Shown here piece after piece: positions 23,099 through 64,000 of a DNA stretch of 64,000 nucleotides; within the stretch, counting starts at the first letter, position 1, and the number at the start of each line of letters is the position of its first letter. The notes beneath the pieces are model-generated. The model saw nothing but the letters and a program-made list of their open reading frames with translations. It was not told the origin of the DNA and ran no database searches. The DNA comes from a virus: the IMG/VR virus record IMGVR_UViG_3300035698_028866, positions 1 to 64,000 of that record. One strand, given 5' to 3'. The position numbers and the translations under genes were made by a program.

Positions 23099-23120
23099 TT
23101 GCCTAGTCCCCTATATTGGT
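23098..23120. repeat. 23-bp direct repeat, copy 2 (3' end of the beta' C-half gene)
   Basis: attgcctagtcccctatattggt. Confidence 0.95.
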
Positions 23121-25436
23121 TATCTTTCCACTCAATACGATTTGCGGAATTGTTGCTGAAGCTCTTGTTGGGTCACTAAAGGTCTGACCAGAATGTAACG
23201 CGTCCATGAGAGATCCTTTAAGGTAGTATCCCCCCAGGCGCTCCAGCCAGTCAGAAGAATGCTGAAGAGCTTCTACGGCAGGACGCATTTCAGGATCAAA
23301 GGGTGGGGGGACATTGTGCACCGCGATTTCCTTTACGTTGTGCCCCACCATCTCTTTTACCATGCTCGGTGTCAGTCTAGTTCCAATAGTGTAATGCATG
23401 ATGGGTTTCTCCAGCCATGTATCCACAGCTCGCTTCGGATCCATAAGCTTGAAACCTTCTCGAGGCTTATAGGACCTAGCTATCTGAGAATACTCCACAA
23501 TGTCCCCCGGCACCCACTCCCCAAAGCGTGAATTCATCCTCACGTGGTTTATGACCCCTCTTGCCAGATATTCTATGTTCCTCTTGTTGTGTGATATCCC
23601 TGAGTCTTTGAGAGCCTTGGAGAAGATGTCAACGAATAGCTTCCTGCCTTCCCCAATACCCCTATAACGAGCAAGCTCCGCAGGATTGGGTATACCTTCG
23701 CTCAGAACAGTTCCCCTTTCCACGTGCTGCCCCGATCTTACGTTTACGGCTAGACCTGGGGCTATATGGTATTCCTGCGTCCCTACGAGGATATTCTTGC
23801 CTCCTGCTGGTAGATCCAGTATGTCTTTTACGACACCGCCCTGAGAGGCAATGGCTGCACCCCCCGCAAAGCTCTTGGGAACGGTTATGAGCTGCTTCAC
23901 AAGCTCCAGCCCTGTTACTGTTCCTCGGGATACGTGCTTGCTCGCGATAGCTGACTGAGTTAATGGTTCTGAATTACTAACTACCAAACCATTGGCCAAA
24001 AGAAAAAGATGGTCAGGATGATTTACATAGATGTCGTATGTTTTCTTTTTTCCTACACTCTCTGCTGAAATTCTGCAACAGCGATCAATACTATCAAAAG
24101 AGTCCGGCAGAACAGCCTGAAACCTATCAAGATTGTTAGCTAAGCAGAAACTAACAGGACGCTTTGCAACAAGCTCTCCATATGTTTTTTCGCTCTGAGT
24201 CCTATTTGACCTTACGTCTATCGTAGAAAGTATTTTATGATCAGGTGTAGATATTACTTCCAGCAGACACTCTCTAGTAGATTTTCCTGTCCCTCTTCGG
24301 AAGATAGTTTTGATGCACTCCTTTTCTCCGCTGTAACCTGTCTTTAGCACCTCTACTGGTTTAATCTTTCCGTGTTTGCTACATCCGAGAATCCTATCAC
24401 TTAAGGCTATGTCCTGTATTTTTTTCTCGCTCCCATCAGCCATCTGTATTAGAGTGTCTTCGGCCAAACAAAGGCTCTGGGTCGCGGATACTCCTGGGAA
24501 AGAACCTAAGGCAGGATACGTCCCTGTCTCTCTATAGCCTGCAGCCTGTTGAGATATCCCATCCTCTAGCATAGAAGTAGTAGGGGAGTATACGAGGATC
24601 CTTTCGTGCTTTCTTGCAATACGCTTCATGAGACGAGGGGTAAGTACTTCACCAGCCTTTGCAATGTCATCAATGTCTTCTGCAAGCACGGCCCCCTCAT
24701 AATCAGGATCCTTAGGGTCTATGGGAAGACCTATTCCCTTCTCTGGTTCCAGCTGCCCTGTAACTCTAAGTCTAAGAACGGAGCGGAAGAGCTGATTAGC
24801 CAGATACCCAGCCTCGGGAGTTGCAAGCTTCAAAGCGGTGTAGCCTTTTCGTGTTCCATATCCCGTAGTCCAATACTCTTCCGGAGTCAAACCTTCCGCA
24901 TACCCATGGAGAATTGGAACGGGTAGAGGTTTGTCATCATTCCCTACACCATAGATAGGTCCTGCCACGAGATCCAAAGTCTTACCAATTGAGCCTCTGC
25001 TTCCGCTCTTTACCTGGAGGAGGAAAGATGTGTCTCCCTTGTCCTTGACCAGTCTATCCTCCAGAACTCCACGCGAGAGCTCAAGAAGCTTTACTATCCT
25101 ACTGCGCTTTTCCTCGGGTGAAGAGTCACTTGCCACAACGGCGTCTACCTGTTGCTTTAGCTGCTCCCGGATCTCCACCATCTGCTTGGAGAGGGAGAAC
25201 GACTTAGGCGTAAGAGAGCTAACACCACCATACTCCTTTGCGACGTGCTCTCCAAAAAGGTGAAGCCTTCGGAGAATAGCGGCATAGTCTTCAGGGTGAG
25301 CCTTAGCCACTTCGTACATGATCAGCTGAATCTTGTTCTTGTCTATACCCCCAGAGTCAACAAGGTAATGGACATCCTTAGGGAGAATGTCTTTCAGTAT
25401 GAGCTTGCCTATTGTGGTGTTTACTACATTACCCAT
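23103..25436 (-). CDS. rpoC: Phage RNA polymerase beta'-like subunit, C-terminal half, with intein
   Basis: TTIGK, SGSRGS, bridge helix EGLTPEEYW..GTRKG..KLATPEAGYL, trigger loop QSL|SEPLTQ..SKH. Confidence 0.92.
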   Translation of the reverse strand: MGNVVNTTIGKLILKDILPKDVHYLVDSGGIDKNKIQLIMYEVAKAHPEDYAAILRRLHLFGEHVAKEYGGVSSLTPKSFSLSKQMVEIREQLKQQVDAVVASDSSPEEKRSRIVKLLELSRGVLEDRLVKDKGDTSFLLQVKSGSRGSIGKTLDLVAGPIYGVGNDDKPLPVPILHGYAEGLTPEEYWTTGYGTRKGYTALKLATPEAGYLANQLFRSVLRLRVTGQLEPEKGIGLPIDPKDPDYEGAVLAEDIDDIAKAGEVLTPRLMKRIARKHERILVYSPTTSMLEDGISQQAAGYRETGTYPALGSFPGVSATQSLCLAEDTLIQMADGSEKKIQDIALSDRILGCSKHGKIKPVEVLKTGYSGEKECIKTIFRRGTGKSTRECLLEVISTPDHKILSTIDVRSNRTQSEKTYGELVAKRPVSFCLANNLDRFQAVLPDSFDSIDRCCRISAESVGKKKTYDIYVNHPDHLFLLANGLVVSNSEPLTQSAIASKHVSRGTVTGLELVKQLITVPKSFAGGAAIASQGGVVKDILDLPAGGKNILVGTQEYHIAPGLAVNVRSGQHVERGTVLSEGIPNPAELARYRGIGEGRKLFVDIFSKALKDSGISHNKRNIEYLARGVINHVRMNSRFGEWVPGDIVEYSQIARSYKPREGFKLMDPKRAVDTWLEKPIMHYTIGTRLTPSMVKEMVGHNVKEIAVHNVPPPFDPEMRPAVEALQHSSDWLERLGGYYLKGSLMDALHSGQTFSDPTRASATIPQIVLSGKITNIGD
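23973..24470 (-). mobile_element. Mini-intein (166 aa) in the trigger-loop region
   Basis: Starts CLAEDTLIQMADG, block B TPDH, ends TYDIYV..HLFLLANGLVVSN, +1 Ser. Confidence 0.92.
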
Positions 25437-26235
25437 ATCCGAGAGCCTCTAATTGAGCCTTTAGTGCTTCGTCGTCCGGAACTTCATCATCATCACGCAA
25501 CTCTACTGGTTTCAGCTTGTCGTTGAACTCACCTATGGACACCCACGGAACAGTCAAAAGCTCTGGATTTGACCACGAAGCATGGTGACCGAAGCATGCA
25601 TCTTCTCCGATCAGCTGTCCATGGTCTGCCGTAACTATGACTCTACCTTTCAGCTTCGGAAGTAGCTTCTCCGCTAAGTTGATAGAGAGACGAGCGTTAC
25701 GCGTGTAGGCTAGCTTCAAAAGATTCCAGAACTCAGGCTTCCAGTTCTTATGCCGCCCTTTTTTCATTATCTGACGATTGAATTTCTTGTCTTCCTCCAG
25801 AATGAATGGTTCGTGAGGCTGAAGGAAGTGAATCACTGTGTGCAGAGGCTGACCTTCCGCTGTATGCCTGAGAACGGCGGTGGATACTCTGTCTGGCTCT
25901 ATTCCAAGTGTAGGACATCCAGATCTATGAATAGCAGTCCAGGTGTTCACAAACTTGAAGTTCTCCGCCTTCTCCCTACGAGCCTGATTATAGGGTACAG
26001 GATTAGCCGTAACATAGAGAACAGGAGGACCATCCGAGAACATATCACAGATCCCAGACATGTAGCATTGGGTCTGACCCCCCATGGAAATCATGCTCTC
26101 TATCTTGTCGGAGCGGGACCATATCTCTCGGAAAGTGTCATCTCGACAGGCATCAAGAATGATAAGGACGTTCCAGTCCTTTTTGGACAAACGTAGATAT
26201 TGTTCGGAATGTTGATTTGCTGAAGCTTTTGACAT
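25429..26235 (-). CDS. Sulfatase-like alkaline-phosphatase-superfamily protein
   Basis: IILDACR, HFLQPHEPF, VTADHG, GHH, VPW, C-terminal LEALGY. Confidence 0.8.
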   Translation of the reverse strand: MSKASANQHSEQYLRLSKKDWNVLIILDACRDDTFREIWSRSDKIESMISMGGQTQCYMSGICDMFSDGPPVLYVTANPVPYNQARREKAENFKFVNTWTAIHRSGCPTLGIEPDRVSTAVLRHTAEGQPLHTVIHFLQPHEPFILEEDKKFNRQIMKKGRHKNWKPEFWNLLKLAYTRNARLSINLAEKLLPKLKGRVIVTADHGQLIGEDACFGHHASWSNPELLTVPWVSIGEFNDKLKPVELRDDDEVPDDEALKAQLEALGYG

Positions 26236-26241
26236 ACGTAT

Positions 26242-26270
26242 ATTATATGTCTACTGCCAAGGCGTGTCCA
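26242..26270 (-). promoter_or_regulatory. Sigma70-type promoter, probably leaderless transcript
   Basis: TGGACA-17 nt-TATAAT, then 6 nt, then ATG 26235; no SD. Confidence 0.65.
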
Positions 26271-27549
26271 GTTCAAAAAAGCTAAAGATGTTCCTACCCA
26301 CTTGACAGATATCCGAAGCCTTGGAAATCTCTGGGGAGGAAGACCATACAAAGGCATCGTCAAGTGTATGAGTCCCGCACAGAGTAGACGGAGGAACAAA
26401 CACCTTACCCGACTCAATCTTTGAGCTTAAAGCAAAGCCGTCTTCTGGGATTAGGACAAGATCGGGAATGATACCAAAGGATTCATCACCATAGATATCC
26501 TCCCCTTTGTGAATAGCCTTGAACACTCTTTTGTCAGTGTCAAATGTCTTCAGGGCCTTCAAGTCCATCTGCAAGGCATTACGTATTTCCTCTACGTCTG
26601 TAACACAACCCTTATCCCATACGCCCTTCTGCATGATGTAGATCCGACCCATGAACAAGGAGAATGCAAGAGACCCCATCTGTATGTCCCTATAGAGCTG
26701 GCGATATCCACAGCGTTCAAACCTGGTAAAGCCCTCGTTCCATAGCCATGTGTTCAGCTTAACCTCTTTCTCTATGAGGCACATGCCGTGATCACTTAGG
26801 ATAACCACATCAGCTCCAGCACGGTCAGCCTCCTCAAGGAAATCAGCAACGAGAGAATCCACTCTGCGATAAAAGTCCAGGAAGTACTCATGATCTTCGT
26901 GATTCTTGTCATGGTAGGCATCCAGAGCAAAATGTCCTATCCTATCTGTGTCTATGTCATGTAGGAAGAAGAAGTCCCAGTCGTAGTTGTGCATTACATC
27001 CATAGAAAACCTATGACGTGCTGCACTTACAGTATCCAGCTCTGTCTTGAATAGGCTAGGGTTCAATTGGGTCTTTACGGCATCAATGTCCTGTCTGTAG
27101 CCCGTAGAACGAATCTTCTCACGAACACTCTCAGGACCTACTATATCTCTAGAGTCTGGGTTTATCTCACACCCGGAGAGGAAACCACTCACCATGATGT
27201 TACAGTTCGGAAGTGCAGGGTAAGACAGGGGAACACCTAGAGATATGCAGGTTGCGCCCTCTAAGTCTAAACTGTCCCATATGGTGCGTCCTGCAATATA
27301 GTAGCTATCAGGGATGCTAACACTGAGGTCGTAATTAGGCTCCAAAAACCCAAAGACTTCTGTGTCCTGAGGATAAAGCCCTGTCTGAAAGGATGCCCAA
27401 GCTGATATACTCACGGGAAGAACAACACTGGAGATCTCATGCCCGTTCTTCAAGAGGCTCCCAAGAACAGGCATTACGCCTTCTTCTCCGAGAGCCCTTG
27501 CAAGAGATAAACTAAGACCATCAAGACCCAAGCCTGCTAGTTTTTTCAT
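26251..27549 (-). CDS. AlkP-superfamily type I phosphodiesterase / nucleotide pyrophosphatase-like protein
   Basis: GLDG, PVSISAWASFQTG, DRIGH, SDHG, PDLVLIP, GTH. Confidence 0.88.
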   Translation of the reverse strand: MKKLAGLGLDGLSLSLARALGEEGVMPVLGSLLKNGHEISSVVLPVSISAWASFQTGLYPQDTEVFGFLEPNYDLSVSIPDSYYIAGRTIWDSLDLEGATCISLGVPLSYPALPNCNIMVSGFLSGCEINPDSRDIVGPESVREKIRSTGYRQDIDAVKTQLNPSLFKTELDTVSAARHRFSMDVMHNYDWDFFFLHDIDTDRIGHFALDAYHDKNHEDHEYFLDFYRRVDSLVADFLEEADRAGADVVILSDHGMCLIEKEVKLNTWLWNEGFTRFERCGYRQLYRDIQMGSLAFSLFMGRIYIMQKGVWDKGCVTDVEEIRNALQMDLKALKTFDTDKRVFKAIHKGEDIYGDESFGIIPDLVLIPEDGFALSSKIESGKVFVPPSTLCGTHTLDDAFVWSSSPEISKASDICQVGRNIFSFFELDTPWQ

Positions 27550-28781
27550 GTAAAGATACCTCCGGCTACGGTTTTTCCGTCCCTTAGGAGAGAAAACCTG
27601 CCTGTATATGGGTTATTAGCAAACGTCTCAAATGCCAGCGCCTTCACGAGAAACCCTGCGTCGGCTATATTAGTCTTTTCCAGCTTCATCAGATCTTTCA
27701 TATTTCCCGCTGTAGCCGTATTCGTCCTTGTAGTCAAACTAATGCCTGTGCACGGATACTTGGTGAATCCAGCACGGAGGACAAGATTGTTGGTTTTCTC
27801 ACCTTCTACTATCTTTAAGGGCTCGTCGTCCAACCAGAATATAGTCCCGTGACCAATAGGAAAGAACACTAGTGCTTGATACTTAGGAGTAAGAATGTCC
27901 CCACGGTCAGGAGCAAGCGTGGTTGGATCGAACGTAAGCCCGATAGCATCACCAGCGGAAGCAGACTCAATAGGCCTTCCCCATCCATCTATTAGTGTAT
28001 ATACCTCTCCTGTCATTCTTGGGAAGCCACCTACTACAAAGTCCTTAAGCTTGATACTTCCTGTTCGAACAACTCCCATGTAGATATCTTCCCCAGGCAT
28101 AGAGATCTTATCCTGTATCTCTATACGAGAAGGAAGAAGAGACCTGGTGTCAGTCGGGGGAATCTGCTCTGCTATAACATCGAGTAAAGCACCCCCAAGC
28201 TCAAACGCAGGGAAGCCGGGAGTAGATACGTTGAAGCCTGTAAGCGCGCTAATGGGGACATGAGCAGTTATCTTGCACCCAACCTTGGTTATAAGCCTAT
28301 CCAAGGTCTTTTTGGCTTCTTGATAGCGTTTCATGTCATATTCAATTGCATCCAGCTTATTGTAGACAGCTATTACCGACTTAGTGGACATGAACTTGAG
28401 AAGATGTGCATGTCTAACAGTCTGCTCCGTAACACCCTCTGTAACGTCGAAGATGAAGAGGACAGAGTCAGCCTGTGTAGCACCGCTAGCGGCCGCTGTG
28501 AAGAATTCCAAGTGACCGGGTACGTCTACGAGGGTAAACTGCCTATCCTTGTGCCTGTAGGTTACCTGACTCTCTCCTATTGTCTTCCTAGTTATCCGCT
28601 CCTCTCTCAAGTAGTCTACGAGAAATCCAAGCTCTAAGTCTTTCATACCACGCTCTTTACAAGTCTTCTTCACATCGTCGATCCTACTCTGAGGAATTCC
28701 GCCTGTGTCTAGAAGGATCCTGCCTAACAGTGTGGACTTTCCATGATCCGTGCTTCCAAGAAGTACTAGTTTATGTATCAT
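27546..28781 (-). CDS. cysN: Sulfate adenylyltransferase subunit 1 (CysN-like GTPase)
   Basis: GSTDHGKST, DVPGH, NKLD, SALTG, C-terminal GRFSLL..TVAGG; adjacent to cysD. Confidence 0.85.
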   Translation of the reverse strand: MIHKLVLLGSTDHGKSTLLGRILLDTGGIPQSRIDDVKKTCKERGMKDLELGFLVDYLREERITRKTIGESQVTYRHKDRQFTLVDVPGHLEFFTAAASGATQADSVLFIFDVTEGVTEQTVRHAHLLKFMSTKSVIAVYNKLDAIEYDMKRYQEAKKTLDRLITKVGCKITAHVPISALTGFNVSTPGFPAFELGGALLDVIAEQIPPTDTRSLLPSRIEIQDKISMPGEDIYMGVVRTGSIKLKDFVVGGFPRMTGEVYTLIDGWGRPIESASAGDAIGLTFDPTTLAPDRGDILTPKYQALVFFPIGHGTIFWLDDEPLKIVEGEKTNNLVLRAGFTKYPCTGISLTTRTNTATAGNMKDLMKLEKTNIADAGFLVKALAFETFANNPYTGRFSLLRDGKTVAGGIFT

Positions 28782-29603
28782 TTACATATATCCCAAAGCG
28801 TGAAGTCGTTGCATGTTATAAGTGTCTTCCTTGTCTTGTGCCCTTCCGTCTCGTTCAGCATCCGTTGTGGTGCATAGTTCCTTCATGATCGCATCCAACG
28901 TATCAGCATCGGAGTCTATCGGAGAGCTACAAGGATCACAGCCCAAGCTTCTATAGCGTTTCCCTTCCGAAGCAAAGTAGAGAGGGCAGACGGGGAGGTT
29001 GTTCTTCTTGACATAGCTCCAGACGTCGATCTCGCGCCATGCAAGCAAAGGATGAATCCTGTAATGCTCCCCGGGATTCATCTCACTATCATAATGATCC
29101 CACAACTCAGGAGACTGGTCCATGTAGTTCCACTTGAAGTCCTTATTCCTGGGAGACCACATGCGTTCCTTTGCTCTTATCCCATGCTCATCCCTTCTTA
29201 TACCCAAGAAGAGCGCGTCGAACCCATTCTCCTCTACACAGTCCATGAGCGCCACAGTCTTAAGCTTATGGCAGCACGTGAACTTATCTGACTTACTAGG
29301 CCCCTGCCCCTCACTAAGAGCCTTTTCGTTCTTCGCCACTATTAGGTTCAGCCCGAGCTCTTCCACCTGCTGGTCCCTGAAGCGTAGAAGCTCTATCTTA
29401 TGCCATCCCGTATCTATGAATACCACGGGGAAGGGGTTTATACCAAAGAATGAACTCCTACATAGCCAGAGAAGGGTCTGACTATCTTTACCACATGACC
29501 ACAGCAAGGCAGGGTTCTTGAATTGGACCCTTGCCTCACGAATAGCAATCACGGAGAGCTGCTCTAGTTCGTGCAGCCTCTCATCTGACGTCTCTTTGTC
29601 CAT
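28782..29603 (-). CDS. cysD: Sulfate adenylyltransferase subunit 2
   Basis: LWSCGKDS, IDTGW, GIRRDE..RAKER..SPR, QSPELW, RIHPL..W.E.DVW.Y, YRSLGC, ERDGRAQDKE, GYM; start at MDKET. Confidence 0.95.
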   Translation of the reverse strand: MDKETSDERLHELEQLSVIAIREARVQFKNPALLWSCGKDSQTLLWLCRSSFFGINPFPVVFIDTGWHKIELLRFRDQQVEELGLNLIVAKNEKALSEGQGPSKSDKFTCCHKLKTVALMDCVEENGFDALFLGIRRDEHGIRAKERMWSPRNKDFKWNYMDQSPELWDHYDSEMNPGEHYRIHPLLAWREIDVWSYVKKNNLPVCPLYFASEGKRYRSLGCDPCSSPIDSDADTLDAIMKELCTTTDAERDGRAQDKEDTYNMQRLHALGYM

Positions 29604-29604
29604 A

Positions 29605-29862
29605 CTAGTGTCCCTTTGAGGTTGATTCAATTGCATCTTTTATGATCTCTATATCATCCCTTAGCTCTTCAAAGCGCTTTACGAGGTCTGAAAGCTTCAG
29701 GTCTTCCGGGGGAGCACAACAGCGTATCCCCGAGAAGCCATTGTTCACACCAGGGAATGCTGCTGGGTAGTGCTCCTTCAACTCTTCGGTCAACTCTACA
29801 AGATCGAGCGACAGGAAATAAAGCCTATTCCTGTCCGCCTTGTTTATACCTCCACTAGTCAT
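29605..29862 (-). CDS. Hypothetical protein
   Basis: 85 aa, fills the operon gap. Confidence 0.6.
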   Translation of the reverse strand: MTSGGINKADRNRLYFLSLDLVELTEELKEHYPAAFPGVNNGFSGIRCCAPPEDLKLSDLVKRFEELRDDIEIIKDAIESTSKGH

Positions 29863-29863
29863 T

Positions 29864-30427
29864 TCATCCCTCCCCTTTTACCAACTCAGCAGGGTCATAC
29901 GAGTCCATTACCTCCGTAGACAACTTCCCAGGAGATTTTATCCTCTTCTGCCTGTCCATTATCACCTTGGCATAGTTCCTACCATCGTGATCAGGTTCAA
30001 ACATACAGATAAGCTGGATAGGCTTGTTAAATGCGTAGGCAACCCCAAGATCGAAGTGGCTCCCCGTACTTTTCCTTGTCCAGAATATCGCTACCATATC
30101 ACTCCATGCTATCTTCTTTACCTCCAAGGCTACGATCTCATTCCCCGTCTCATCCTCGGGCATTCTAACCTCATTGGGGTAGAAGATGTCATGCCCCTCA
30201 TCTCTCCATACCCTCACCTGCTCACTCATTTGCTTCAGCTGCTCATCAGTCGCCTTCCTGACAGGGCAGATAGCATACACCTTTAAGGGTCTTGGGGGAA
30301 ACAAGGACGTATCCTCATCCTTCCCCATGCTCTTCTTCTCCATCTTCAACTTCCGTCTTGTTTTGGCCCAAGAACTTTTGCCACTGCCAGAGTTGCCGAT
30401 TTCTTCTTTGCTGCTTTCCCACGTCAT
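29864..30427 (-). CDS. Nucleoside 2-deoxyribosyltransferase-like (NDT/RCL) protein
   Basis: KVYAICP, IFYP, IAWSDMV, STGSHFDLGVAYAFNKPI. Confidence 0.75.
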   Translation of the reverse strand: MTWESSKEEIGNSGSGKSSWAKTRRKLKMEKKSMGKDEDTSLFPPRPLKVYAICPVRKATDEQLKQMSEQVRVWRDEGHDIFYPNEVRMPEDETGNEIVALEVKKIAWSDMVAIFWTRKSTGSHFDLGVAYAFNKPIQLICMFEPDHDGRNYAKVIMDRQKRIKSPGKLSTEVMDSYDPAELVKGEG

Positions 30428-30442
30428 GGGTTAGTCTCCTTT

Positions 30443-31184
30443 TCATAAGGTATTAGCTACACGGTTAAATAGATCTTTATTCACATGTTCAAACACATAC
30501 GATACGTCACTCACTTTTATAGTCTTAAACTCCCCAGTCTCCGAATCTGTTACATATCCGTCAATAATAAGCCCAATGACCTTATAGAGCTCTTCCATAG
30601 ACTTCGGAGGGGTATAGGTCTTATCTTCGTTCATGTTAATTCCTCATGAGCACGAGGTTCTAAGCAGTAACCAAAAATACCACGGAGCTTCTCACATGTA
30701 TGACTGTGAACTATCGGCGCGTTGCCTGCATTTGCACCACACCAGCATTCATTATCCTCCAGACTTAAGAGTAAAACGGACAAAAGGTTAAGGGACTCGT
30801 AAGACATAACAAGCTCCTGTAACACATCCCTTACACGACACAGACCGACACGCGTAACTGAATCACCCTCCAATCTTAAGACAGATCCATCCTTGTCTGG
30901 AACATTCCCTAGAATTACGTTCTTCTCATCCGTAAGATCGGAGAGAAGTTCATAGGGCTTGATATCGCCACGAATACGCAAGTTCAGCTTCATAATACAT
31001 ACCTTTCATATGCCACTTGCATTGGGAAAACGCTGAAAAGGTGTCTAGAGTGCCCTGAACGAGCTCCCTGGGAAACACCACACGAAGCACAAGAACGAGG
31101 CATATCACAGTTAGGCAAGACCCGTCCTTGTGCACAACTTGGTAGGTACTCCTCCATGCCCTTCATTATACGGAATAACGTCAT
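30443..31184 (-). other. Three small hypothetical genes (30443..30634, 30631..30993, 30990..31184)
   Basis: ATGA-coupled ORFs; the last is Cys-rich and may start at MEEYL. Confidence 0.55.
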
Positions 31185-31194
31185 GTAAATGCAA
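31165..31194 (-). promoter_or_regulatory. Sigma70-type promoter of the NDT-cysDN operon
   Basis: TTGCAT-18 nt-TATAAT directly after the terminator. Confidence 0.55.
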
Positions 31195-31207
31195 CTGAAA
31201 ATCTAGG

Positions 31208-31250
31208 TCATAGCAAAAAAAAAGGAGGGTTGATCTCCTCCCTTTTTTTT
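31208..31250 (-). terminator. Intrinsic terminator closing accessory island B
   Basis: GGGAGG/CCUCCU stem flanked by A8 and U9, tail GCUAUGA. Confidence 0.8.
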
Positions 31251-31299
31251 GATGTCAGGCTCTCCTTAAGCTAATCTGGGTGTGTTAGATAAGTCTTGC

Positions 31300-31506
31300 T
31301 CACCAGAAGGGAATGGGAACTTTCAATGGGAAATCCAAAGCTGCTATCTCCCAGCAGTCGTCAAACAGCTCTTTACATATAGGCAATGGTGCGAAAGGAT
31401 ATTTGACATTATAAAGCTGCTGCTCTCGCAATATCACATTTCCAAAACTAGGATGCTTCAGAATAGTACCCTTCTTCGCCTGTGGGAGCAGCTCTCGTAT
31501 ATACAT
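31300..31506 (-). CDS. Paralog family A protein
   Basis: N-terminus MYIRELLPQAKKG...HP...DDCWEIA. Confidence 0.7.
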   Translation of the reverse strand: MYIRELLPQAKKGTILKHPSFGNVILREQQLYNVKYPFAPLPICKELFDDCWEIAALDFPLKVPIPFW

Positions 31507-31519
31507 AGTCAGTCTCCTT

Positions 31520-31825: not shown

Positions 31826-31827
31826 AG

Positions 31828-32274: not shown

Positions 32275-32276
32275 CG

Positions 32277-33195: not shown

Positions 33196-33206
33196 AGCCT
33201 GTCTCC

Positions 33207-34398: not shown

Positions 34399-34400
34399 AG

Positions 34401-54025: not shown

Positions 54026-54057
54026 TATATTATAGCACATAAGGGGGATAAATTAAG
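54026..54057 (-). promoter_or_regulatory. Island-A promoter (CTTAAT-17-TATAAT)
   Basis: CTTAAT TTATCCCCCTT ATGTGC TATAATATA; same layout as 46664..46695. Confidence 0.75.
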
Positions 54058-54080
54058 CTAGGAGCGGGGATAAGAATAGG

Positions 54081-55382: not shown

Positions 55383-55385
55383 TGA

Positions 55386-55688: not shown

Positions 55689-55830
55689 TTTCCTGCCCTT
55701 TCATGGCTTGTGTTTTAGACTCTAAGGCGGGCCCAGCTTTACGTATCTGCACACAGTGTGACTTAAACTTCAAGTTAGCAAGAAGAACCAACCCCGCCAT
55801 TATCGATATGACAATTAAATCAGAAATCAT
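55681..55830 (-). CDS. Small membrane protein (49 aa)
   Basis: Not in the ORF track; MISDLIVISIMAGLVLLANLK...; lies between the promoter and the 55688 gene. Confidence 0.45.
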   Translation of the reverse strand: MISDLIVISIMAGLVLLANLKFKSHCVQIRKAGPALESKTQAMKGQEND

Positions 55831-55847
55831 GTTCTTAACCTGCTTTC

Positions 55848-55876
55848 ATTATAGTGTTTACGTGCTAAAGTATCAA
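55848..55876 (-). promoter_or_regulatory. Sigma70-type promoter
   Basis: TTGATA-17 nt-TATAAT; the -35 box contains the TGA stop of the RNAP gene. Confidence 0.75.
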
Positions 55877-58800
55877 GTCCCAAGAATTCTCACCGGCTGA
55901 TCCACTCGTATCTTTCCCTGTCTATAAGACTTAAGAGCGGCATCACTTGTTGCAAAGCTTCGAGCTGGACCTTTCTTGCGCCCAGAAGCAAGATACACTC
56001 CCTGAAGGAATTCTGCAAGGGGAAGATACATAACATTGAAGTCCTTCGGGTTAAAAAGGTTACGAGACGGAAGCATCTTATAGGAGTCTTTCACAGCTGC
56101 CTCTGACGCAGGCACATGAAACATCATTGTATTTGACAGGATTAGCCCTTCAATGTTCATAAATGTCTCATAACCAGGCACAGTCAAGTCATAGCCAGTT
56201 TCTTGTTTTCCTGTCTCTTCGTATCCTACTACACGATCCCATAGGATGTCTTCGTTCTGCGTCATAGCTTTGAAGTTGTTCCAATAGGAGCCTTCAACCA
56301 TAGAGTCCATTTCCTCTATGATCGCTAGCGCTATGTCCCTACGCATATGCCCTGCTGTTATTGCGCTCGACAGCCGGAAGTAAAGACTCTTCATGCCAGT
56401 ACCTGCTAGGCTACGAAGATACCTAGCGAACGCATTACTCATCGGAATAACATCCTTGTCTGAGTATTTGCGCACAGTTCCTTTCTCCAAAGCCTCCTTG
56501 TTGCTCTTACAGCAAAGATCAGGATTAAGAGTCTTAAGACCAGATGTGTAGATGTTAAGACACCAAAAAGGAAGTCCCTTTGGAGTCTTAGTGGTTGTTA
56601 CTCTTGATCCAACAGATAAGCTACGAAGCAGATTCTGTATCTCTCTAATGAGCTGTAATGACTTGCTCGTGTAGTTAGCCATAAGCTGTGGACTTTTTCT
56701 GATCTTCTCATTACACAGAGATACGGAACCGTCTGTGTCAATAAGCCCCTCTACGAGACCTAAGCGGAAATCTCTAGGTGTTAAGAGGTAGAACGAAGGC
56801 AGGTGTTTGTTTTCAGCTCCTTTACCTATAAGCCCTTCCAGGAAATCTGCAAACTCGCTGCTGCTTACGACGTATTTTTCACTCTTTCCATATGAAGTCT
56901 GCCCTGACACAATGTGACCAACATGGGGATCGTCCTTAAACACAGCAGCTAAAGACTCTTTGAACCGCTCCACAATACCTGGTTGCAGTGCAGAAAAACA
57001 TACCGAGCCATTCAACTGGCCATTATGATAGGTATTCCAACCGTCACCTATTAGGGCACCAAGCAAGTAACCAAACTGCCTGTCAAGAGCAACTGTCTCA
57101 CGCAGCCTGTTGTTGTGGCCAGTAGGAATCTCTGTTATCGCTACTGGAAGCTCTGAAGCACCCTGAGCTCTTGGGACATACATTCCTACAGCTTCAGCCG
57201 GACGAAAGCGATTCATCTGATAATCAGCAGGGTCTAATCCGTATACAGCTCTTGGGTCGTCATCGCTGAATATCTGTCTTCCGGAGGCTAAGTTGATTAG
57301 AACTATCTCTTTGTCTTCATGCACAGACCAATGGGAGACAGCGGCCAAAACAACCTTCTTGGCTTTCTCATCATAGGCTAAGACCTTTGTGCCATTAACA
57401 GCCTCGTACAGGGTAATGTGTTCCTTCTGTCCGACTGGTTTCTCCCGATGAGGAAAGTCCTTCAAATCACAGTAGAAGAAAGTATGTCCCTTTGCCCCAA
57501 ACAGTCCTGTCTTAAATCGTGCTGCCATCTTTGCGTCTCCAGAAAAAGGTTTAGTGTCTGAAGACGTATTAGAACCAATCTTGTTGGGCAAATCAAGGCC
57601 AATTTCGACAATACCATCATTTTTGGAAATAAATACACTAAGCTCGCTATTTTTGGTTTGTAGTAAGTCGTTATCAGCAGCGAAGATAACACTACCAATC
57701 TGTTTATCTCCGTCAAAATCTCCACCGATCGCTTTCGTAATAGCTGGTGGGATTTCCAAAGTCTCCCCTTTAGTAAGAAGAGGAAAGGCAGACATCATAC
57801 CAAACTTGTGAAGTGTAGGTGCTCGGTTGATGATGACGGGGCGCTCCTTTATAACCCTCAAGAGTGCGCTTCGAGCCTGTTTAGATTTCTCCTCTACCTC
57901 TTTTGTCGCTGTGGTTGGAGCTATCCCTGTTCGAACCAGCTCGCGCAGAATAAACGGTCTATAGACTTTCCATGCGGTTCTCTCAGGGAGGCCCACCTGA
58001 TCAATTGTTAAGTTGCTATTGGGAGTAATTACTGCTAAACCTGACGTATCGACGGAACGCCCAAGGATTCTCCCCTGAATAATAGAGAACTTGGGAGAGC
58101 TTCCGAAAATAGAATGAAGGATTCCTTTCAGCTGCTTGTCCTGGGACTCTTTGCTAATAGGATCTCCAAATCCCATGATAGCCTTCACCCCATCATAGAT
58201 CTGAGACTTGGCTTTTTCCAGCTGATCCTCGGGGACTTCTCCCTTACTATCATTGTATTCCTTGACCAGATCGAATAGGTCCTTGTAGAGGTAGTTAACA
58301 TCGCTGATAACCGGAGTCCCTCTAACCTGCGTAATAGGACGTGCTGCTGGAGGAAGGACAGGAACTTTGGATAGCATGAGCTCTTCAGGAGCTATATCAT
58401 ATTTATCGAGTACCTGAAGGAACTTGAGCTCCTGAGCAGCCTTGTTCTTTTTGCTCACAGGGAGAGAGTCTATTCCATGACGAAGTTCAGTAAGTCTCTT
58501 TTTAACGTTCAGGTTCTTGAGAGCTTTGTAGAGTGCTCCTGGTCCACTTTGTCCGCGGAGCTCTTCCTTTCCTATAAAGACATTCTTCACGTCCTTTATC
58601 TTAAGGCCAAGAAGAACCGCAATAGGTTTTTCTATCGAAGGATTGGGGACAGGCATAGGAAGATTTATATGCCCCCAACGATCCCCACTGGCTCCACCCA
58701 GAGTAGGAGACATAAAGCCTCCCTCTACAGGCTTGAGGGTCTTCTGATCGAGCATGAGGGAGTTCACAATGGCTCCCGAAGAGACCGACTCAGTATCCTT

Positions 58801-61800
58801 GTCCGTCATTGGGAAGATATGAAGCTGGCCCCCTTTTCGCTGTACGTTTATCCCCGCACCCTTCAGCAGGTCAAAGAACTTCTGATGGACAAAAGGAATC
58901 CTGGGAAGTGAAGGCATGCGGCCCATTTTGAAGGCGTTCCACCAGTCTTCGTTCTTCTGGCCTCTTACGAGATGAGCGTCAGCTAAGACATCAATCGCCC
59001 CATGAGAAATAAATGCAGCCAACGCCTGTGAGCCTATCTTCTTGGCTGAGTCCGTGCCGGCGCGAGAAGGCGCTTCTTCAGAAGTATACTCAGCAAGACT
59101 TCGACCCTTAGCTTTCGCTTCTCCCATGTGATACAGCTTATACGCATAGGTCTGGCCCGTCCAAACATCCGGGATTACCTTCCCTGTCTCTGGGTCAGTA
59201 ATGTTCTCTGTAGCCTTTATGCCACTCTTCTGTGCCTCTCCAAGAGCAAACTCCATGATGCTTCCGTCTAAAAACGCGGGGACCTTGTATGGATTTCCTC
59301 TCTTCTTCGCCACCTTACCCAGAAGCATTGCCGCCGCCATAGAAGGATTGCCTCGAGTCTGAATGGAAAGGGGTGAGATCAAAAGCTCAAAAACCTTGCC
59401 TGAGGCATCCCTAGGCATCTTCTCATCCGGGATGACATCAGCAATGATAGAGTTACCAGACCAAAGAGTTCGTCCGTTCCGTCTAGTTAACAAGAGACCT
59501 CCACCTATGTCAACACAGTAAACCTTACCAGAATAAAGTTTTTTGTAGTATCGAAGCTTTTTCCTCGTTTCTATGTGTGTCTTACTCAAACTAAAATCTA
59601 AACGATAGATAGAGTATCCGGCACAACGTCCAGTTTTGGCTGTCTCCATGCTCAGAGAACAGTAAATTCCAAGAGACGCTGAAAGCTGCTGGAAATCGTC
59701 AGCCAGTTGTTTGGATACCGTGTCGTATCTTCCACCTTTATCTGAATACCAATATCCATCACCTTTGATCATGGTCTCCCAAAGAATTCTACGAATACTA
59801 ATGGATGTATTAAAAATCTCCTTTGGGATATGCTTGTCATATGCGCCCTTTAGATCCTGTAGGGCAAAGAATAACTGCTTAGAGTGTATTGCATACTTTA
59901 TCTCGTCACGATTGTGCTGAGAATATGTGTTATATCTCCAAGGGAGCTTTTTAAGCAACGCCTCAATCTCCCTACAATTCTGAGGATTAACTCTTGGAGT
60001 TTGACTAATTACTATCGTATATCCCCGACTATCTGAAATATTACCTTCAGTTATGACCCAGCCTAAAAATTCAGCCCAAAGCTCCATAGAAATTGCCTGA
60101 ACACTGTCTCCGTTTTGACGTTCTGATTGGCGTCCTGGAGGCATAGGAATTTCCTTGTGTGTTAGAGGAGACTCCGACTCATAACCCCAACCCGCGACAC
60201 TGTAGTCATAGCCAAGCTTTTCGTGGCATTCTTCCGCAGGAATGAACTCGTAATTGTCTCTACCACAACGTTGAGCATGCATTCTGTGGTTAGGAGTTAC
60301 GAGATAATCCAGACAGCCCCCACGGTAACCATACATTTCGCCCTCATAGTCATAGCTAAGATGCTCTTTTGGAGTGACAAATACCATCTTGTCATCTACG
60401 ACGGTCGCAACCCTGGAATCCTCATGCATATCCTTAAAAAGCTTCCAGCCACATTCAGTCAATATTTCAGTCTGGTCGTCGTGGCATTTGTGACCAAATC
60501 TTAAAGCCAGCTTATCAGCTTCTTCTGCAGGAGCCTTAGCCTTCACAAAAACTCTCCACCCACTCGGAGAAACCTGAGCATCAGTTACTACGCCCGGCCA
60601 GGCATGCTTCCATGTCACAGAAGAATCAGAGAATTGCCCCAAACCCTTACGCAGCTGATAGTAGAACGGTTTCTTCTCCCTCTCAGAAATAGAGAGTATC
60701 AACGGATCTCCCTCACTTACCTCAGTCCCGGGAAGGATCAAACCTTTATCTCCAATCCTGTCGAACTGCTTTCTGTTGTAATGGCTAGGGAAAGTGCTGA
60801 GGAACTTCTTCTTACCAACGAACACTCCCGGGTCTTTTGGAAGGTCATGGGAAAACAGGTGGATCGACGTCATCTTCTTAGCAGCACTCTCGCTTATTGC
60901 TGCAGCATCCTCGTATGTCTTGCTATAGGGAAGAAGCGCAACCTTAAGGTTCACACCCAGAGCGAGAGTTCCCTTATCCGAGGTAAAATTGGATGAAGCT
61001 ACAAGGTCTCCTTCTCGAACCACATCTCCAACGGCAACTCGAGCAGTCTGGTCTAGGCTAGTCTTGAGGTTGAAGGGATGATCCTTGTAGAGTTCTATCG
61101 TGTGATTTTTACCGTTGGCATCCTTGAGTATTATCTCTTCGTCGGAAACTTTGGCAATACGTCCCGAAACAGGTGCAGATATAGCCCCTGCTCGAGTTCC
61201 AAGAAACTCCTCATAGCTCCTCTTGGTTCCCGGCATAAGAGACTGAACGAGAGGAGCTTCGCGATATTCCAGAGGGAGTGCCTGCTGTGCCATCTTCGAC
61301 GCCATCAAGAGCCTTCCCTGATTGATACCAGAAATCATAGGTGTAAGCTCACTGGCAAGCGAGAACATCTGATTTTTATCAGGAAGGTAATAGTCTACAG
61401 ATTTCCCAGAAACATATGCCTGTTCGAAACCGTGGACGATAGCACTTTGAAGAGGCTTGTTTTCGTTGCCGGGGAAACCAATGATAACATTCTGAAGGTC
61501 CATATTACTAAGATACTCTTTTTTCCCTGTTTTGGCATTGATCATGGGCGCGAAGATCTCTCCCCTGTCATTCGTTTTCACGTTGTTAGCTGCGCGCATG
61601 TCAACACCCACGGTTGTGCTTTCACTCGTGCGGGACGGATCTATAAAACCCAAATAGCTAGGCTGGACAAACCTGGCTTCTTCTGGGATGCCCTGCTTCG
61701 AAGCTATGCCACCCTCTCCCATTCTAGTTAGCCTGAAAAGCTGATCCGTTATCTCTATGGGATTGATTTCAGAGAGAGGCTGAGCAAGACCACTTTTGAA

Positions 61801-64000
61801 CAGGAAGGACGCAATGAGTGGATCAAACATACCCCCAGGAACCCTATCCAGTTTACGGCGATTTGTAGCCTTCCACAGAAGCTTCCTAGCATTACCACCC
61901 CTGTCTTTTGCAAGAGCGTATCTGAGCAGGGAAGGCGGGGTATAGATCTTCTGAGCGTAAAGAGCATCCCTGGGGCTATAACGAGCCTCGCCGCGCCCTA
62001 ACTGGAGAAGGCGTGAGGACGCGGCAAGAAGAAGATTAGGAGTCACATTGCTTTCAGCCTTTCCCAGTGTTCGAAAGGTTATGTCCGGGTCAATATGATG
62101 TAAGGAGAAATACGACGTCAGCTTCTCCTGTGCATCTGCTGTATCAGTAGATCCAAAAAGACGATTCATCACACGAGAGAGAGCCCTTGGGTCGGATTTT
62201 TCCTTGTTGGTCTTATAGAGCTCATCCCCCCATGCGGTTTTCAGTTCATCATCTGAGATACCCAATGTCTGAAGTATAGGGAAAAGCTTCTGGTGCGCCT
62301 GTCCTATTCCAAGACGGAAAACACCTTCTTCTGGAGAGAAAAAGACTCTAAAGCCCCTTCCACCTTCTACGTTGAATGATGCTTCGATATCCCCTGACTT
62401 TGCTCTACGTGTGTAAACACCAGGACGGAGCCTCATCTGATTACAGTTTGATACTAGTATACCGTTGGCAACATAATTATGATTATCCTCTATGCGAATA
62501 TTGTATACAATCTTGCTAGCCTCCCAAGTTTTACCCTCTTTCCACTTAAATGAGGTAGGTATTTCTTCTAACTCGTTGTGCATCTCAGTATCTACCCTAA
62601 GAGCTTCAACCTTGGAACCAGCTACCTTGAGCGTATTTTCCCATGTTTCTACTCCTACTGCCTCTTCAGGAACAGTTTCTGACCTGAGAAGTGTTCGCAC
62701 AGCTCCAGAAGACCCAAACCTGTATCTAGCAGTTTTAGATATGCACGCTTGGCTAGACTCACGTTTAAGTAGACAAAAATTACATATCTCCCTATGTTTT
62801 GAAATTTCTTGGCCGCATTTACACACGCCAGTATTGGGCCTATTAAGAAGTTTATAGTGAAGACATTTTGGAAGATAGGGAGCTACTATTCTAAGCAGTT
62901 TTTGAGTAGCCTTTGCATGTAGAATAAGCACTAACCCTGTTCTACTTTTAGCTATATGAGAAGTCAGCCCCCATCTTTTTTCTATCCACCCTTTTAAAAG
63001 TTCTATGCCTTCTTTTGAGAAACCTTGCGTACAGAATATGGCCTCTGGCGTGTTATAGGGAGTTTGACGTCTACAAGATCCATCATCTCCAAACCAGAAA
63101 GCTAGACCCCTTTCGTCTATCTTATCCAACCACTCCTTACTTATAGTCTTTATTGAATTAGGATAGCATAATTGACTGGCTCTTATAATCTCACTGTGTT
63201 GTCTTAGTCTAAAATAAAAACTGACCTTAGAATTAATCACATGGCCTAAGCTTTCAGAATAACGACTACTCGCCGGCACGCGCTTAAAGCTCTGCATTAA
63301 GGGACTCAATATGTCCCGCTTTAACTGTAAATATTCTTTTTGCTTTATTGAATGACTGCAAGCCCACAAACCCGTGGACTGATCTATAGTTGCGTCCCCA
63401 AGTAAAGAACCATAAATGACCTGCTTTTGGGTCTCGGACAACTGTTTGCGAACTGCTGTCACGGTGGTGGCATGCTGTAAGTCTTTTTTTTCGCCAGTGG
63501 GGCTTACAACTTGATGAGTTCTAGTTCCCCAAAGAGTGCTGGGTTGACTAGTGCTTCCAGGCAAAAAAGCACCATTATTCTTAAATTTTGTATGCCCTAT
63601 ACCTTCCGGGGAATAATTTTTATACCAGCCTGTAATATGTTTAAGCTCAAAACACTCCTTCTTAAAATTGTAGGTCCATACTCGAATTTTTTTCTTTTCC
63701 TTAACAATCTTTCCTATAGAAATCATACCCTTCTCGGTCCATATCTGTGTGGACGTATGAAGACAGATGGTGTAATCATTCCCGGAGTAGATCAATGTCC
63801 CTCTATCGGTAAGATAAGGGACATGGGCCAGAATAGAGGTCTTTCGGTCTATGACGTCTTCTGTGGCAGCATCCCGGAGAACAAGATCACCATGCAGGGG
63901 ATAGAAGAGTGTCTGCCCCTTTGTTATGGCTTTGTACTCGTCCCTCTTACCGTATTTCCGCGGCTTGTATTTCAAGTTTTCCGCACTGAGAGTATACTGT
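55873..64000 (-). CDS. rpoBC: Phage RNA polymerase: beta fused to N-terminal half of beta', three inteins; 5'-partial
   Basis: beta motifs PYLTDRGT, NPIEI, GFIDPSRTSES, MASKMAQQA, YEDA, ADKLALRFGHK, YKLYH, KKIG; beta' motifs WGHINL, PVLPPAARP, NRAPTLH, GDFDGD; frame is open upstream of 63975 to the window edge. Confidence 0.95.
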   Translation of the reverse strand, partial: QYTLSAENLKYKPRKYGKRDEYKAITKGQTLFYPLHGDLVLRDAATEDVIDRKTSILAHVPYLTDRGTLIYSGNDYTICLHTSTQIWTEKGMISIGKIVKEKKKIRVWTYNFKKECFELKHITGWYKNYSPEGIGHTKFKNNGAFLPGSTSQPSTLWGTRTHQVVSPTGEKKDLQHATTVTAVRKQLSETQKQVIYGSLLGDATIDQSTGLWACSHSIKQKEYLQLKRDILSPLMQSFKRVPASSRYSESLGHVINSKVSFYFRLRQHSEIIRASQLCYPNSIKTISKEWLDKIDERGLAFWFGDDGSCRRQTPYNTPEAIFCTQGFSKEGIELLKGWIEKRWGLTSHIAKSRTGLVLILHAKATQKLLRIVAPYLPKCLHYKLLNRPNTGVCKCGQEISKHREICNFCLLKRESSQACISKTARYRFGSSGAVRTLLRSETVPEEAVGVETWENTLKVAGSKVEALRVDTEMHNELEEIPTSFKWKEGKTWEASKIVYNIRIEDNHNYVANGILVSNCNQMRLRPGVYTRRAKSGDIEASFNVEGGRGFRVFFSPEEGVFRLGIGQAHQKLFPILQTLGISDDELKTAWGDELYKTNKEKSDPRALSRVMNRLFGSTDTADAQEKLTSYFSLHHIDPDITFRTLGKAESNVTPNLLLAASSRLLQLGRGEARYSPRDALYAQKIYTPPSLLRYALAKDRGGNARKLLWKATNRRKLDRVPGGMFDPLIASFLFKSGLAQPLSEINPIEITDQLFRLTRMGEGGIASKQGIPEEARFVQPSYLGFIDPSRTSESTTVGVDMRAANNVKTNDRGEIFAPMINAKTGKKEYLSNMDLQNVIIGFPGNENKPLQSAIVHGFEQAYVSGKSVDYYLPDKNQMFSLASELTPMISGINQGRLLMASKMAQQALPLEYREAPLVQSLMPGTKRSYEEFLGTRAGAISAPVSGRIAKVSDEEIILKDANGKNHTIELYKDHPFNLKTSLDQTARVAVGDVVREGDLVASSNFTSDKGTLALGVNLKVALLPYSKTYEDAAAISESAAKKMTSIHLFSHDLPKDPGVFVGKKKFLSTFPSHYNRKQFDRIGDKGLILPGTEVSEGDPLILSISEREKKPFYYQLRKGLGQFSDSSVTWKHAWPGVVTDAQVSPSGWRVFVKAKAPAEEADKLALRFGHKCHDDQTEILTECGWKLFKDMHEDSRVATVVDDKMVFVTPKEHLSYDYEGEMYGYRGGCLDYLVTPNHRMHAQRCGRDNYEFIPAEECHEKLGYDYSVAGWGYESESPLTHKEIPMPPGRQSERQNGDSVQAISMELWAEFLGWVITEGNISDSRGYTIVISQTPRVNPQNCREIEALLKKLPWRYNTYSQHNRDEIKYAIHSKQLFFALQDLKGAYDKHIPKEIFNTSISIRRILWETMIKGDGYWYSDKGGRYDTVSKQLADDFQQLSASLGIYCSLSMETAKTGRCAGYSIYRLDFSLSKTHIETRKKLRYYKKLYSGKVYCVDIGGGLLLTRRNGRTLWSGNSIIADVIPDEKMPRDASGKVFELLISPLSIQTRGNPSMAAAMLLGKVAKKRGNPYKVPAFLDGSIMEFALGEAQKSGIKATENITDPETGKVIPDVWTGQTYAYKLYHMGEAKAKGRSLAEYTSEEAPSRAGTDSAKKIGSQALAAFISHGAIDVLADAHLVRGQKNEDWWNAFKMGRMPSLPRIPFVHQKFFDLLKGAGINVQRKGGQLHIFPMTDKDTESVSSGAIVNSLMLDQKTLKPVEGGFMSPTLGGASGDRWGHINLPMPVPNPSIEKPIAVLLGLKIKDVKNVFIGKEELRGQSGPGALYKALKNLNVKKRLTELRHGIDSLPVSKKNKAAQELKFLQVLDKYDIAPEELMLSKVPVLPPAARPITQVRGTPVISDVNYLYKDLFDLVKEYNDSKGEVPEDQLEKAKSQIYDGVKAIMGFGDPISKESQDKQLKGILHSIFGSSPKFSIIQGRILGRSVDTSGLAVITPNSNLTIDQVGLPERTAWKVYRPFILRELVRTGIAPTTATKEVEEKSKQARSALLRVIKERPVIINRAPTLHKFGMMSAFPLLTKGETLEIPPAITKAIGGDFDGDKQIGSVIFAADNDLLQTKNSELSVFISKNDGIVEIGLDLPNKIGSNTSSDTKPFSGDAKMAARFKTGLFGAKGHTFFYCDLKDFPHREKPVGQKEHITLYEAVNGTKVLAYDEKAKKVVLAAVSHWSVHEDKEIVLINLASGRQIFSDDDPRAVYGLDPADYQMNRFRPAEAVGMYVPRAQGASELPVAITEIPTGHNNRLRETVALDRQFGYLLGALIGDGWNTYHNGQLNGSVCFSALQPGIVERFKESLAAVFKDDPHVGHIVSGQTSYGKSEKYVVSSSEFADFLEGLIGKGAENKHLPSFYLLTPRDFRLGLVEGLIDTDGSVSLCNEKIRKSPQLMANYTSKSLQLIREIQNLLRSLSVGSRVTTTKTPKGLPFWCLNIYTSGLKTLNPDLCCKSNKEALEKGTVRKYSDKDVIPMSNAFARYLRSLAGTGMKSLYFRLSSAITAGHMRRDIALAIIEEMDSMVEGSYWNNFKAMTQNEDILWDRVVGYEETGKQETGYDLTVPGYETFMNIEGLILSNTMMFHVPASEAAVKDSYKMLPSRNLFNPKDFNVMYLPLAEFLQGVYLASGRKKGPARSFATSDAALKSYRQGKIRVDQPVRILGT
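56131..57705 (-). mobile_element. Atypical intein (about 525 aa) with LAGLIDADG endonuclease, directly after DFDGD
   Basis: Ends GYDLTVPGYETFMNIEGLILSN, +1 Thr; GYLLGALIGDG and GLIDTDGS; N-terminal boundary inferred from restoring DFDGD-TMMFHVP. Confidence 0.85.
59452..60486 (-). mobile_element. Intein (345 aa) with LAGLIDADG endonuclease in the beta catalytic-lysine motif
   Basis: Starts CHDDQTEILT, TPNH, FLGWVITEG, MIKGDG, ends RRNGRTLWSGN, +1 Ser. Confidence 0.93.
62446..63765 (-). mobile_element. Intein (440 aa) with LAGLIDADG endonuclease in the beta N-terminal region
   Basis: Starts CLHTSTQIWT, TRTH, YGSLLGDA, FWFGDDGS, ends HNYVANGILVSN, +1 Cys. Confidence 0.93.

Follow-up and report, generated by a model that had tools for sequence, protein, structure and literature searches.

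A bacterial-type phage RNA polymerase encoded by a beta-beta' fusion gene and a separate gene for the C-terminal part of beta'

The two RNA polymerase genes

The stretch of DNA studied here, hereafter the window, is the first 64 kb of the linear 80,526-bp IMG/VR viral contig IMGVR_UViG_3300035698_028866. It carries two genes for an RNA polymerase (RNAP) of bacterial type, the first encoding the beta subunit fused to the N-terminal part of beta' (beta-beta'N) and the second the remainder of beta' (beta'C). An earlier note, made from the sequence alone, had described the enzyme as re-partitioned in this way. The coordinates of both genes, of their inteins and of neighbouring features are collected in Table 1.

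The frame of the fusion gene is open on the minus strand from 55873 to the window end and extends for another 125 nt in the contig, as far as a GTG start codon at 64125 with a GAGGAG Shine-Dalgarno sequence. Removal of its three putative inteins would leave a spliced product of 1440 aa. In this single frame, Pfam detected Rpb2_3, Rpb2_6 (86 bits for a cut-off of 23.4), Rpb1_1 and Rpb1_2 (57 bits), Rpb1_2 scoring above and Rpb1_1 below its own cut-off. Among the PDB chains, the ORF (open reading frame) matched bacterial beta (E 4e-32) and beta' (E 3.5e-39), with an alignment ending at residue 831 of T. thermophilus beta'. The chain consists of a complete, compact beta followed in frame by beta' residues ~6-552 (E. 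coli numbering). At the junction, the position of the E. coli beta C-terminus (~1340) is joined to beta' residue ~6, and the family consensus reads AGINV..R.G....IMAMTDKDVD. The Pfam domains of both subunits, the PDB alignments and the junction itself bear out the earlier claim of a beta-beta'N fusion in one frame. The same note had placed both catalytic barrels in one polypeptide running to just past DFDGD and GVYLAS, and both motifs were located, at 57706-57720 (E. coli beta' 460-464) and 55984-56001, respectively. The last 85 residues of the chain align with T. thermophilus beta' 745-831. On the beta side of the active site, the segment ADKLALRFGHK/S aligns with E. coli 1064-1074 and retains both lysines (DK/HK).

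The beta'C gene starts with MGNVVNTTIGK, just ahead of the TTxG[RK] motif (25404-25421), and covers E. coli beta' from ~566 to the end. Its PDB matches are to bacterial beta' only (E 3e-15), from about residue 664 of the M. tuberculosis subunit to the C-terminal modules, and its Pfam match, Rpb1_5, is below the family cut-off. The bridge helix lies at 24777-24857 (GTRKGYTALKLATPEAGYLANQL), the trigger loop reads SATQSL/SEPLTQSAIASKH with the trigger-loop His present, and the C-terminal cleft modules are present as well. Between them, the two genes thus encode all conserved elements of a bacterial-type catalytic core, among them the two lysines of beta, the bridge helix, the Mg loop and the trigger-loop His. 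The distant beta'C gene of the earlier note, running from TTxG[RK] onwards with funnel, bridge helix and trigger loop, was recovered as described.

Table 1. Features of the window and of two relatives with a gene interrupted at DFDGD/T. A solidus marks a junction or an insertion point.
Feature	Coordinates	Strand	Remarks
beta-beta'N fusion precursor gene	55873..64125	-	2750 aa; GTG start; stop codon 55873-55875
Fusion junction	58795-58854	-	GINVQRKGGQLHIFPM/TDKD; beta C-terminus (GINVQRKGGQLHIFP) directly into beta' (MTDKD...)
beta' N-terminal part up to catalytic GGDFDGD	57706..58809	-	aligned to T. thermophilus beta' 449-744, E 3.5e-39
Last 85 residues of fused chain (TMMFHVP...GVYLAS...VRILGT)	55876..56130	-	to E. 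coli beta' ~552
beta'C gene	23103..25436	-	777-aa precursor; 611 aa spliced (predicted)
Intein 1 (putative)	62446..63765	-	440 aa; C...SN/C; LAGLIDADG_2 (PF03161, 6.7e-25); E. coli beta 145/146
Intein 2 (putative)	59452..60486	-	345 aa; C...GN/S; E. coli beta K1073/1074
Intein 3 (putative)	56131..57705	-	525 aa; KQIGSV...LSN/T; E. coli beta' D464/465
Intein 4 (putative)	23973..24470	-	166-aa mini-intein; C...SN/S; Pfam Hom_end_hint; trigger loop, E. coli beta' 923/924
Split at DFDGD/T, first relative	L018:6530-11809 with L183:732-3461(-)
Split at DFDGD/T, second relative	L015:2041-5436 with L015:10452-11429 and L184:142-2430(-)
Block between the RNAP genes	25437..55872	-	30.4 kb; about 55 mostly small same-strand ORFs
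Collagen-like tail-fibre gene	3065-5596
Exonuclease gene	8381-9841
Major-head-like gene	11760-12707

Conservation and history of the layout

To locate homologs, a 582-aa piece spanning the junction (window:57706-59451:-) was used as query. Against 1.84 billion cluster representatives it gave 1220 matches at E <= 1e-30, and the beta/beta' junction was covered contiguously in all of the 150 best of them (E <= 1e-131). In a set of 5.8 billion proteins, the top 120 matches covered 100% of the query and contained both Rpb2_6 and Rpb1_2; they were typically 1460-1490 aa long and came from contigs of up to 235 kb. The break point is shared too: among the 180 homologs with a recognisable DFDGD, the chain ends 80-99 aa past this motif, as in the window, in 176.

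The same pair of genes is found in cultured phages. Salmonella phage Arash (OQ632216) encodes counterparts of the fusion (gp206, 1525 aa) and of beta'C (gp216, 606 aa), and so do Vibrio phage D69 (genes 0261, 1527 aa, and 0264, 609 aa) and, likewise, D148 and D181. Their break point, their junction motif (..G[IS]..MTD[KR][DE]) and their layout in two genes are those of the window, but they are only about 25-29% identical to it and are devoid of inteins. The window fusion aligns with gp206 over its whole length at 28-29% identity, with gaps exactly at the inteins, and beta'C with gp216 at 25%. In public records, the Arash and Vibrio phage proteins are named 'beta subunit', 'beta prime subunit' or 'hypothetical protein' (the D69 pair being 'hypothetical'), with the fusion unmentioned. 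The full-text literature searched, with subscription journals outside its coverage, contained no description of a fused or re-split phage beta-beta' enzyme; the lineage is apparently undescribed.

A search of viral contigs with the single junction protein gave no matches and an alignment query was needed. With an alignment of intein-free homologs (A1), 80 IMG/VR loci were fetched and their frames checked. In 29 loci, beta and the whole of beta' form one ORF of about 2000-2100 aa before inteins are counted. Two further loci (L020 and L054) are also single-ORF if TGA is read as Trp, giving 31 in all; the in-frame stops of their RNAP genes (L020:7691-13606 and L054:7685-13690) are all TGA, which suggests that these phages or their hosts recode this codon. 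The single-ORF relatives (for instance L025, L057 and L065) are homologous to the window proteins over the whole length, have the same junction and lack the beta' Zn-binding domain, but their beta' is unbroken and the entire catalytic core is one polypeptide. In these relatives, residues matching the VRILGT end of the window fusion are followed 0-2 residues later by the equivalent of the beta'C start; therefore, nothing was lost at the break.

A separate beta'C ORF was found 0.85-7.3 kb downstream in the 16 loci most similar to the window, and at 10.7, 16 and about 52 kb in other relatives, on the opposite strand in the last case. The spacing is 4.8 kb in Arash and 0.6 kb in D69, against 30 kb in the window. 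The 30-kb separation stressed by the earlier note was thus confirmed by measurement; it is unusually wide and lies towards one end of a range from 0.6 to about 52 kb.

A metagenomic fusion or split may also be an artefact of assembly or a frameshift. The window is known from a single low-coverage contig, and in public salt-lake sequencing runs, where its depth is 2-4, no listed piece bridges the junction. The contig pieces of four such runs are, however, 100% identical to the window, without joints or indels, and the same junction and break point recur in the genomes of cultured phages and in hundreds of other, independent assemblies, which leaves the artefact a negligible chance. The layout is conserved in a large phage lineage including cultured phages, and an assembly artefact is excluded in practice. 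The combination is consequently not the rarity that the earlier note took it to be.

As the earlier note had proposed, the chains were concatenated and a tree was built with bacterial RpoB/RpoC. The maximum-likelihood tree of concatenated beta and beta' comprised 55 rows and 1960 columns, with 11 bacterial outgroups including the fused Wolbachia gene. The phages formed a clade with a support of 100, in which 16 split rows, among them the window and Arash, made up one clade (support 99) nested among full fusions. When the tree was rooted on bacteria, three successive full-fusion lineages branched before the split clade, and an approximately unbiased (AU) test rejected the grouping of all single-chain forms (p = 0.00165). 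This nesting indicates that an enzyme which was ancestrally a single chain was split secondarily, so the idea of a redrawn subunit boundary held. The parsimonious history, as far as sequences can tell, would be a fusion first and then one fission inside beta'.

The opposite polarity, with an ancestral two-chain layout from which the single-ORF forms were produced when beta'C was later joined on again, appears unlikely. Fusion of adjacent genes is easy, several split relatives have beta'C less than 1 kb downstream on the same strand, and the root depends on very distant bacterial sequences. Yet this scenario would need several independent re-fusions at exactly the same residue, and the AU result speaks against it as well.

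An alignment of both window chains with E. coli rpoB/rpoC, Arash and ten single-ORF relatives gave 23% identity between the window chains and E. coli over 1965 aligned positions. The window enzyme has none of the SI1, SI2 and SI3 inserts of the E. coli lineage. Like those of Arash, L025 and L057, it also lacks the beta' Zn-binding domain (E. coli beta' 68-99). At 58600-58760 on the minus strand, the motif GG(x)3G..RW[GS]H stands family-wide in place of the four-Cys ribbon of beta'.

Inteins in both chains

Four insertions with intein boundaries were identified, three in beta-beta'N and one in beta'C. Inteins 1, 2 and 4 have the features of class 1 inteins (Cys or Ser at position 1, a C-terminal Asn and Cys, Ser or Thr at position +1). 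Intein 2 sits directly behind the catalytic-site Lys of the beta GHK motif; it has no Pfam match of its own, but the alignments with Arash gp206 and E. coli have their gap exactly here, and about 20 family members have an insertion around this site.

Intein 3, which interrupts the catalytic loop, matches Intein_splicing and LAGLIDADG_3 in Pfam, and its boundaries were set by the intein-free family consensus DFDGD[A/T]M[QN][YF]HVP. It is non-canonical: it starts with Lys1-Gln2 and thus has no Cys or Ser at position 1, SDDD replaces the block-B TxxH so that the block-B His is missing, Asp occupies position 4 of block F and the end is Ser-Asn/Thr. The start, the SDDD and the Ser-Asn end favour the view that intein 3 cannot splice and that the two genes are decaying relics of an inactive enzyme, the host polymerase being used for transcription. 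We regard this as quite improbable. The 8.2-kb frame is free of stops and its catalytic motifs are intact, the other three inteins have canonical Cys...Asn/Cys or Ser boundaries, and the presence of an intein of the same type at the same site in about 25 diverged representatives of the family speaks for selection and function. Among these representatives the first residue varies and the second is usually Gln (Cys in 4); TDDDxRxVYG and GYDLTVPG.ETF are conserved, but there is no conserved Cys. Judged by these patterns, intein 3 looks like a member of a conserved non-canonical intein class.

Insertions of at least 120 aa are present in 140 of the 261 listed homologs (P0003-P0263), whose precursors reach 3350 aa. 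They gather at conserved or catalytic sites, most strongly near beta ~565, beta ~1070 and beta' 464, and by these alignments the fused RNAP family is an intein hot spot. It is an exceptional host for inteins, with insertions at catalytic residues.

In two relatives (L018 and L015), the RNAP gene is interrupted exactly at DFDGD/T in a way that resembles a natural split intein whose N fragment is very short, at 26 aa (SVAGDTLV...) and 12 aa (CQWGHVFLLIKS). The partner ORF opens with the rest of the Hint domain followed by TM.[LV]HVP. In one of the two relatives it is encoded ~52 kb off on the opposite strand, in the other ~5 kb downstream. L015 is additionally broken at 552/566, so that its RNAP core is spread over three ORFs.

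Partner proteins, related enzymes and genomic setting

Other RNAP components were searched in the contig and in ten near-complete relatives, namely the complete Arash genome and nine IMG/VR records, eight of which are at least 90% complete according to CheckV. Each of the ten has one beta-barrel and one beta'-barrel locus; therefore, these phages have a single polymerase set, unlike phiKZ-type phages. No alpha (PF01000, PF01193) or omega (PF01192) domain was detected in any of the ten, the same searches being positive in 14 of 14 control genomes. In the 80.5-kb contig itself, no alpha (PF01000) or sigma Pfam domain was found (no search for omega was made there), and neither a six-frame Pfam search nor phmmer with the sigma-like ORFs of relatives detected a sigma factor. 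These absences are uninformative because the contig is 42% complete (CheckV); the sigma genes of relatives are, besides, far from their RNAP genes. Sigma70 region 2 was detected in 5 and region 4 in 7 of the ten relatives, five records being above the curated cut-offs, and Arash encodes two sigma-like proteins. The earlier note had remarked on the lack of alpha, omega and sigma genes in the window: for alpha and omega this extends to complete relatives, but for sigma it carries no weight, since most complete relatives have sigma70-family proteins.

The two chains might also not be partners at all, each pairing with other RNAP pieces from the 58% of the genome beyond the contig, in the way of phiKZ-type phages with their two polymerase sets. 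The contig is indeed incomplete and the genes are 30 kb apart. However, the ten near-complete relatives all have exactly one beta-barrel locus, one beta'-barrel locus and one beta'C, the two window chains abut without loss or overlap when laid against the single-ORF relatives, and the contig gave no additional match to Arash probes. We hold separate partners to be very improbable.

We therefore consider it likely that the two genes encode the two precursors of a bacterial-type phage RNAP core, derived from an ancestral beta-beta' fusion by a later fission in a sub-lineage. In this scheme, beta and beta' would have been fused into one chain in the ancestor of the phage lineage. In the sub-lineage of the window phage, Arash, D69, D148 and D181, a break in a surface loop that follows the beta' barrel would then have divided the fused gene, and its parts would have moved away from each other in the genome. 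Assembly in the window phage would require prior splicing of four inteins, of which chain 1 contains three and chain 2 one. Chain 2 (beta' ~566 to the end) would bring the funnel, bridge helix, trigger loop and jaw/cleft, and the two chains would associate across an interface that is intramolecular in the single-chain relatives, as in a contiguous bacterial beta'. The covalent beta-beta' link probably replaces the alpha-dimer assembly platform; an artificially fused E. coli beta-beta' is functional. Promoter choice probably comes from phage sigma70-family proteins. By analogy with Arash, the window enzyme is probably carried in the virion: the Arash virion proteome includes gp216 and the sigma protein gp10 besides gp206, which was detected more than any other protein (PMC10585845).

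Several points weigh against this reading. The contig being ~42% complete, the window phage's own sigma factor and any further subunits would lie beyond it. The weakest point is intein 3, which lies in the catalytic loop and has neither a recognisable position-1 nucleophile nor a block-B His; a mature chain 1 in the window phage is accordingly a predicted product. The tree comes from a quick LG+G4 search with a distant bacterial outgroup, and the group submitted to the AU test was named after the tree had been seen. The sigma matches of several relatives are below Pfam cut-offs, and virion packaging is based on one relative with about 28% identity.

Among known enzymes, the fusion in Wolbachia (L164, a single frame of 2853 aa) resembles that of the window in tethering the beta C-terminus to the beta' N-terminus, and Helicobacter has a cellular rpoB-rpoC fusion as well. 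In these cellular fusions beta' is whole, whereas the window chain stops at beta' ~552, and they work with alpha and omega. Wolbachia groups with the unfused Neoehrlichia inside bacteria; therefore, the phage fusion is independent of the Wolbachia one.

The cyanobacterial and plastid rpoC1/rpoC2 genes share the other trait, a beta' divided between its double-psi barrel and the part with the funnel and the bridge helix. The window break (~552/566) is an estimated 15-50 residues upstream of the cyanobacterial one (the offset between beta'C and RpoC2 is about 15), and the proximity asserted by the earlier note is correct in that both lie in the same inter-domain region. Cyanobacteria, however, have a free-standing beta and adjacent rpoC1-rpoC2 genes, whereas in the window beta is fused and the genes are 30.4 kb apart. 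That note had also stated that phiKZ/AR9 enzymes are split elsewhere. This is wrong for beta', since their split follows the double-psi beta-barrel (DPBB) domain and coincides with the cyanobacterial one (Sokolova et al. 2020, PMC7598289). In phiKZ-type enzymes beta is also split and there are two sets and no sigma (PMC7598289), whereas the window lineage has an intact beta, and relatives have one set and sigma genes.

The mReC phages (Weinheimer & Aylward 2020) were defined by separate beta and beta' proteins of at least 800 aa and the motif NADxDGD in beta', with a fusion unmentioned (PMC7481178). Like the window phage, they are uncultured tailed phages with cellular-like beta and beta' branching outside bacteria, but the window has a fused chain and the motif GGDFDGD. 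A listed mReC contig (L080, 149,482 bp) has separate beta' and beta genes and falls outside the fused group. The crAss-like phages have, like the window, two double-psi barrels in one very large protein. Their single-chain RNAP (gp66 type) is of another family and has no detectable similarity to beta/beta' profiles (PMC7481178), whereas the window enzyme matches Pfam and bacterial PDB chains with E from 1e-24 to 1e-39.

As a tentative extension, to which we give somewhat less than even weight, these phages may form a large undescribed lineage of ~150-230 kb genomes with a self-sufficient RNAP, free of alpha and omega, delivered by the virion and programmed by phage sigma factors, which began as a single ~2000-aa chain and was re-cut at a new site in a sub-lineage, and in two relatives at the catalytic loop by a naturally split intein. 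To our knowledge, all cellular RNAPs assemble beta and beta' on an alpha-type platform, and subunit boundaries are treated as nearly fixed. If the extension is true, the beta/beta' boundary would be freely movable in evolution, having here been erased and redrawn elsewhere in an enzyme near enough to bacterial RNAP for residue-level comparison, and no smaller bacterial-type RNAP of one or two genes would be known. Such an enzyme, together with a sigma of its own, would make an attractive orthogonal transcription system. The cultured members, Arash and the Vibrio phages, make alpha-free assembly, sigma use and virion delivery directly testable.

Almost all genes of the window are on the minus strand. 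The tail-fibre, exonuclease and major-head-like genes indicate that the contig belongs to a tailed phage. The nearest cultured relatives have genomes of about 180-188 kb, a myovirus size, and the near-complete metagenomic relatives of 152-210 kb, from which a full size of ~190 kb is expected for the window phage. Short identical pieces of the contig are contained in several salt-lake metagenomes, and no RNA dataset was among the sequencing runs listed as containing it. A scan of bacterial genomes returned ordinary rpoC alone (23-32% identity); neither a close relative in cells nor a prophage copy turned up, and nothing pointed to a host.

The complete relative G005 is colinear with the window, has a gap of 3.3 kb between the RNAP genes and no homolog there of the window's inter-gene ORFs; the 30.4-kb block looks like a hypervariable accessory region. 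Two possible causes of the fission were rejected: a homing endonuclease, the inter-gene ORFs of the window and of close relatives having no Pfam family, and a split intein at the window's break, where the two ends created consist of extein alone and are contiguous in single-ORF relatives. In one relative a LigD-like gene lies between the two RNAP genes, and the window block contains genes for a type I phosphodiesterase (26251-27549) and for an elongation-factor-like GTPase (27546-28781). A 209-aa ORF without Pfam family (54753-55382, minus strand) follows shortly downstream of the fused gene. It has weak similarity (E 1e-4 to 8e-6) to the ORF placed immediately after the fused gene in L006, L011 and L049, and may, from this similarity, be a conserved partner. 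Finally, the pattern CTTAAT-N17-TATAAT showed no enrichment in the window with 2 mismatches allowed, but it occurs in two exact copies on the minus strand (46667-46695 and 54029-54057) for 0.02 expected, and may represent a phage promoter class.

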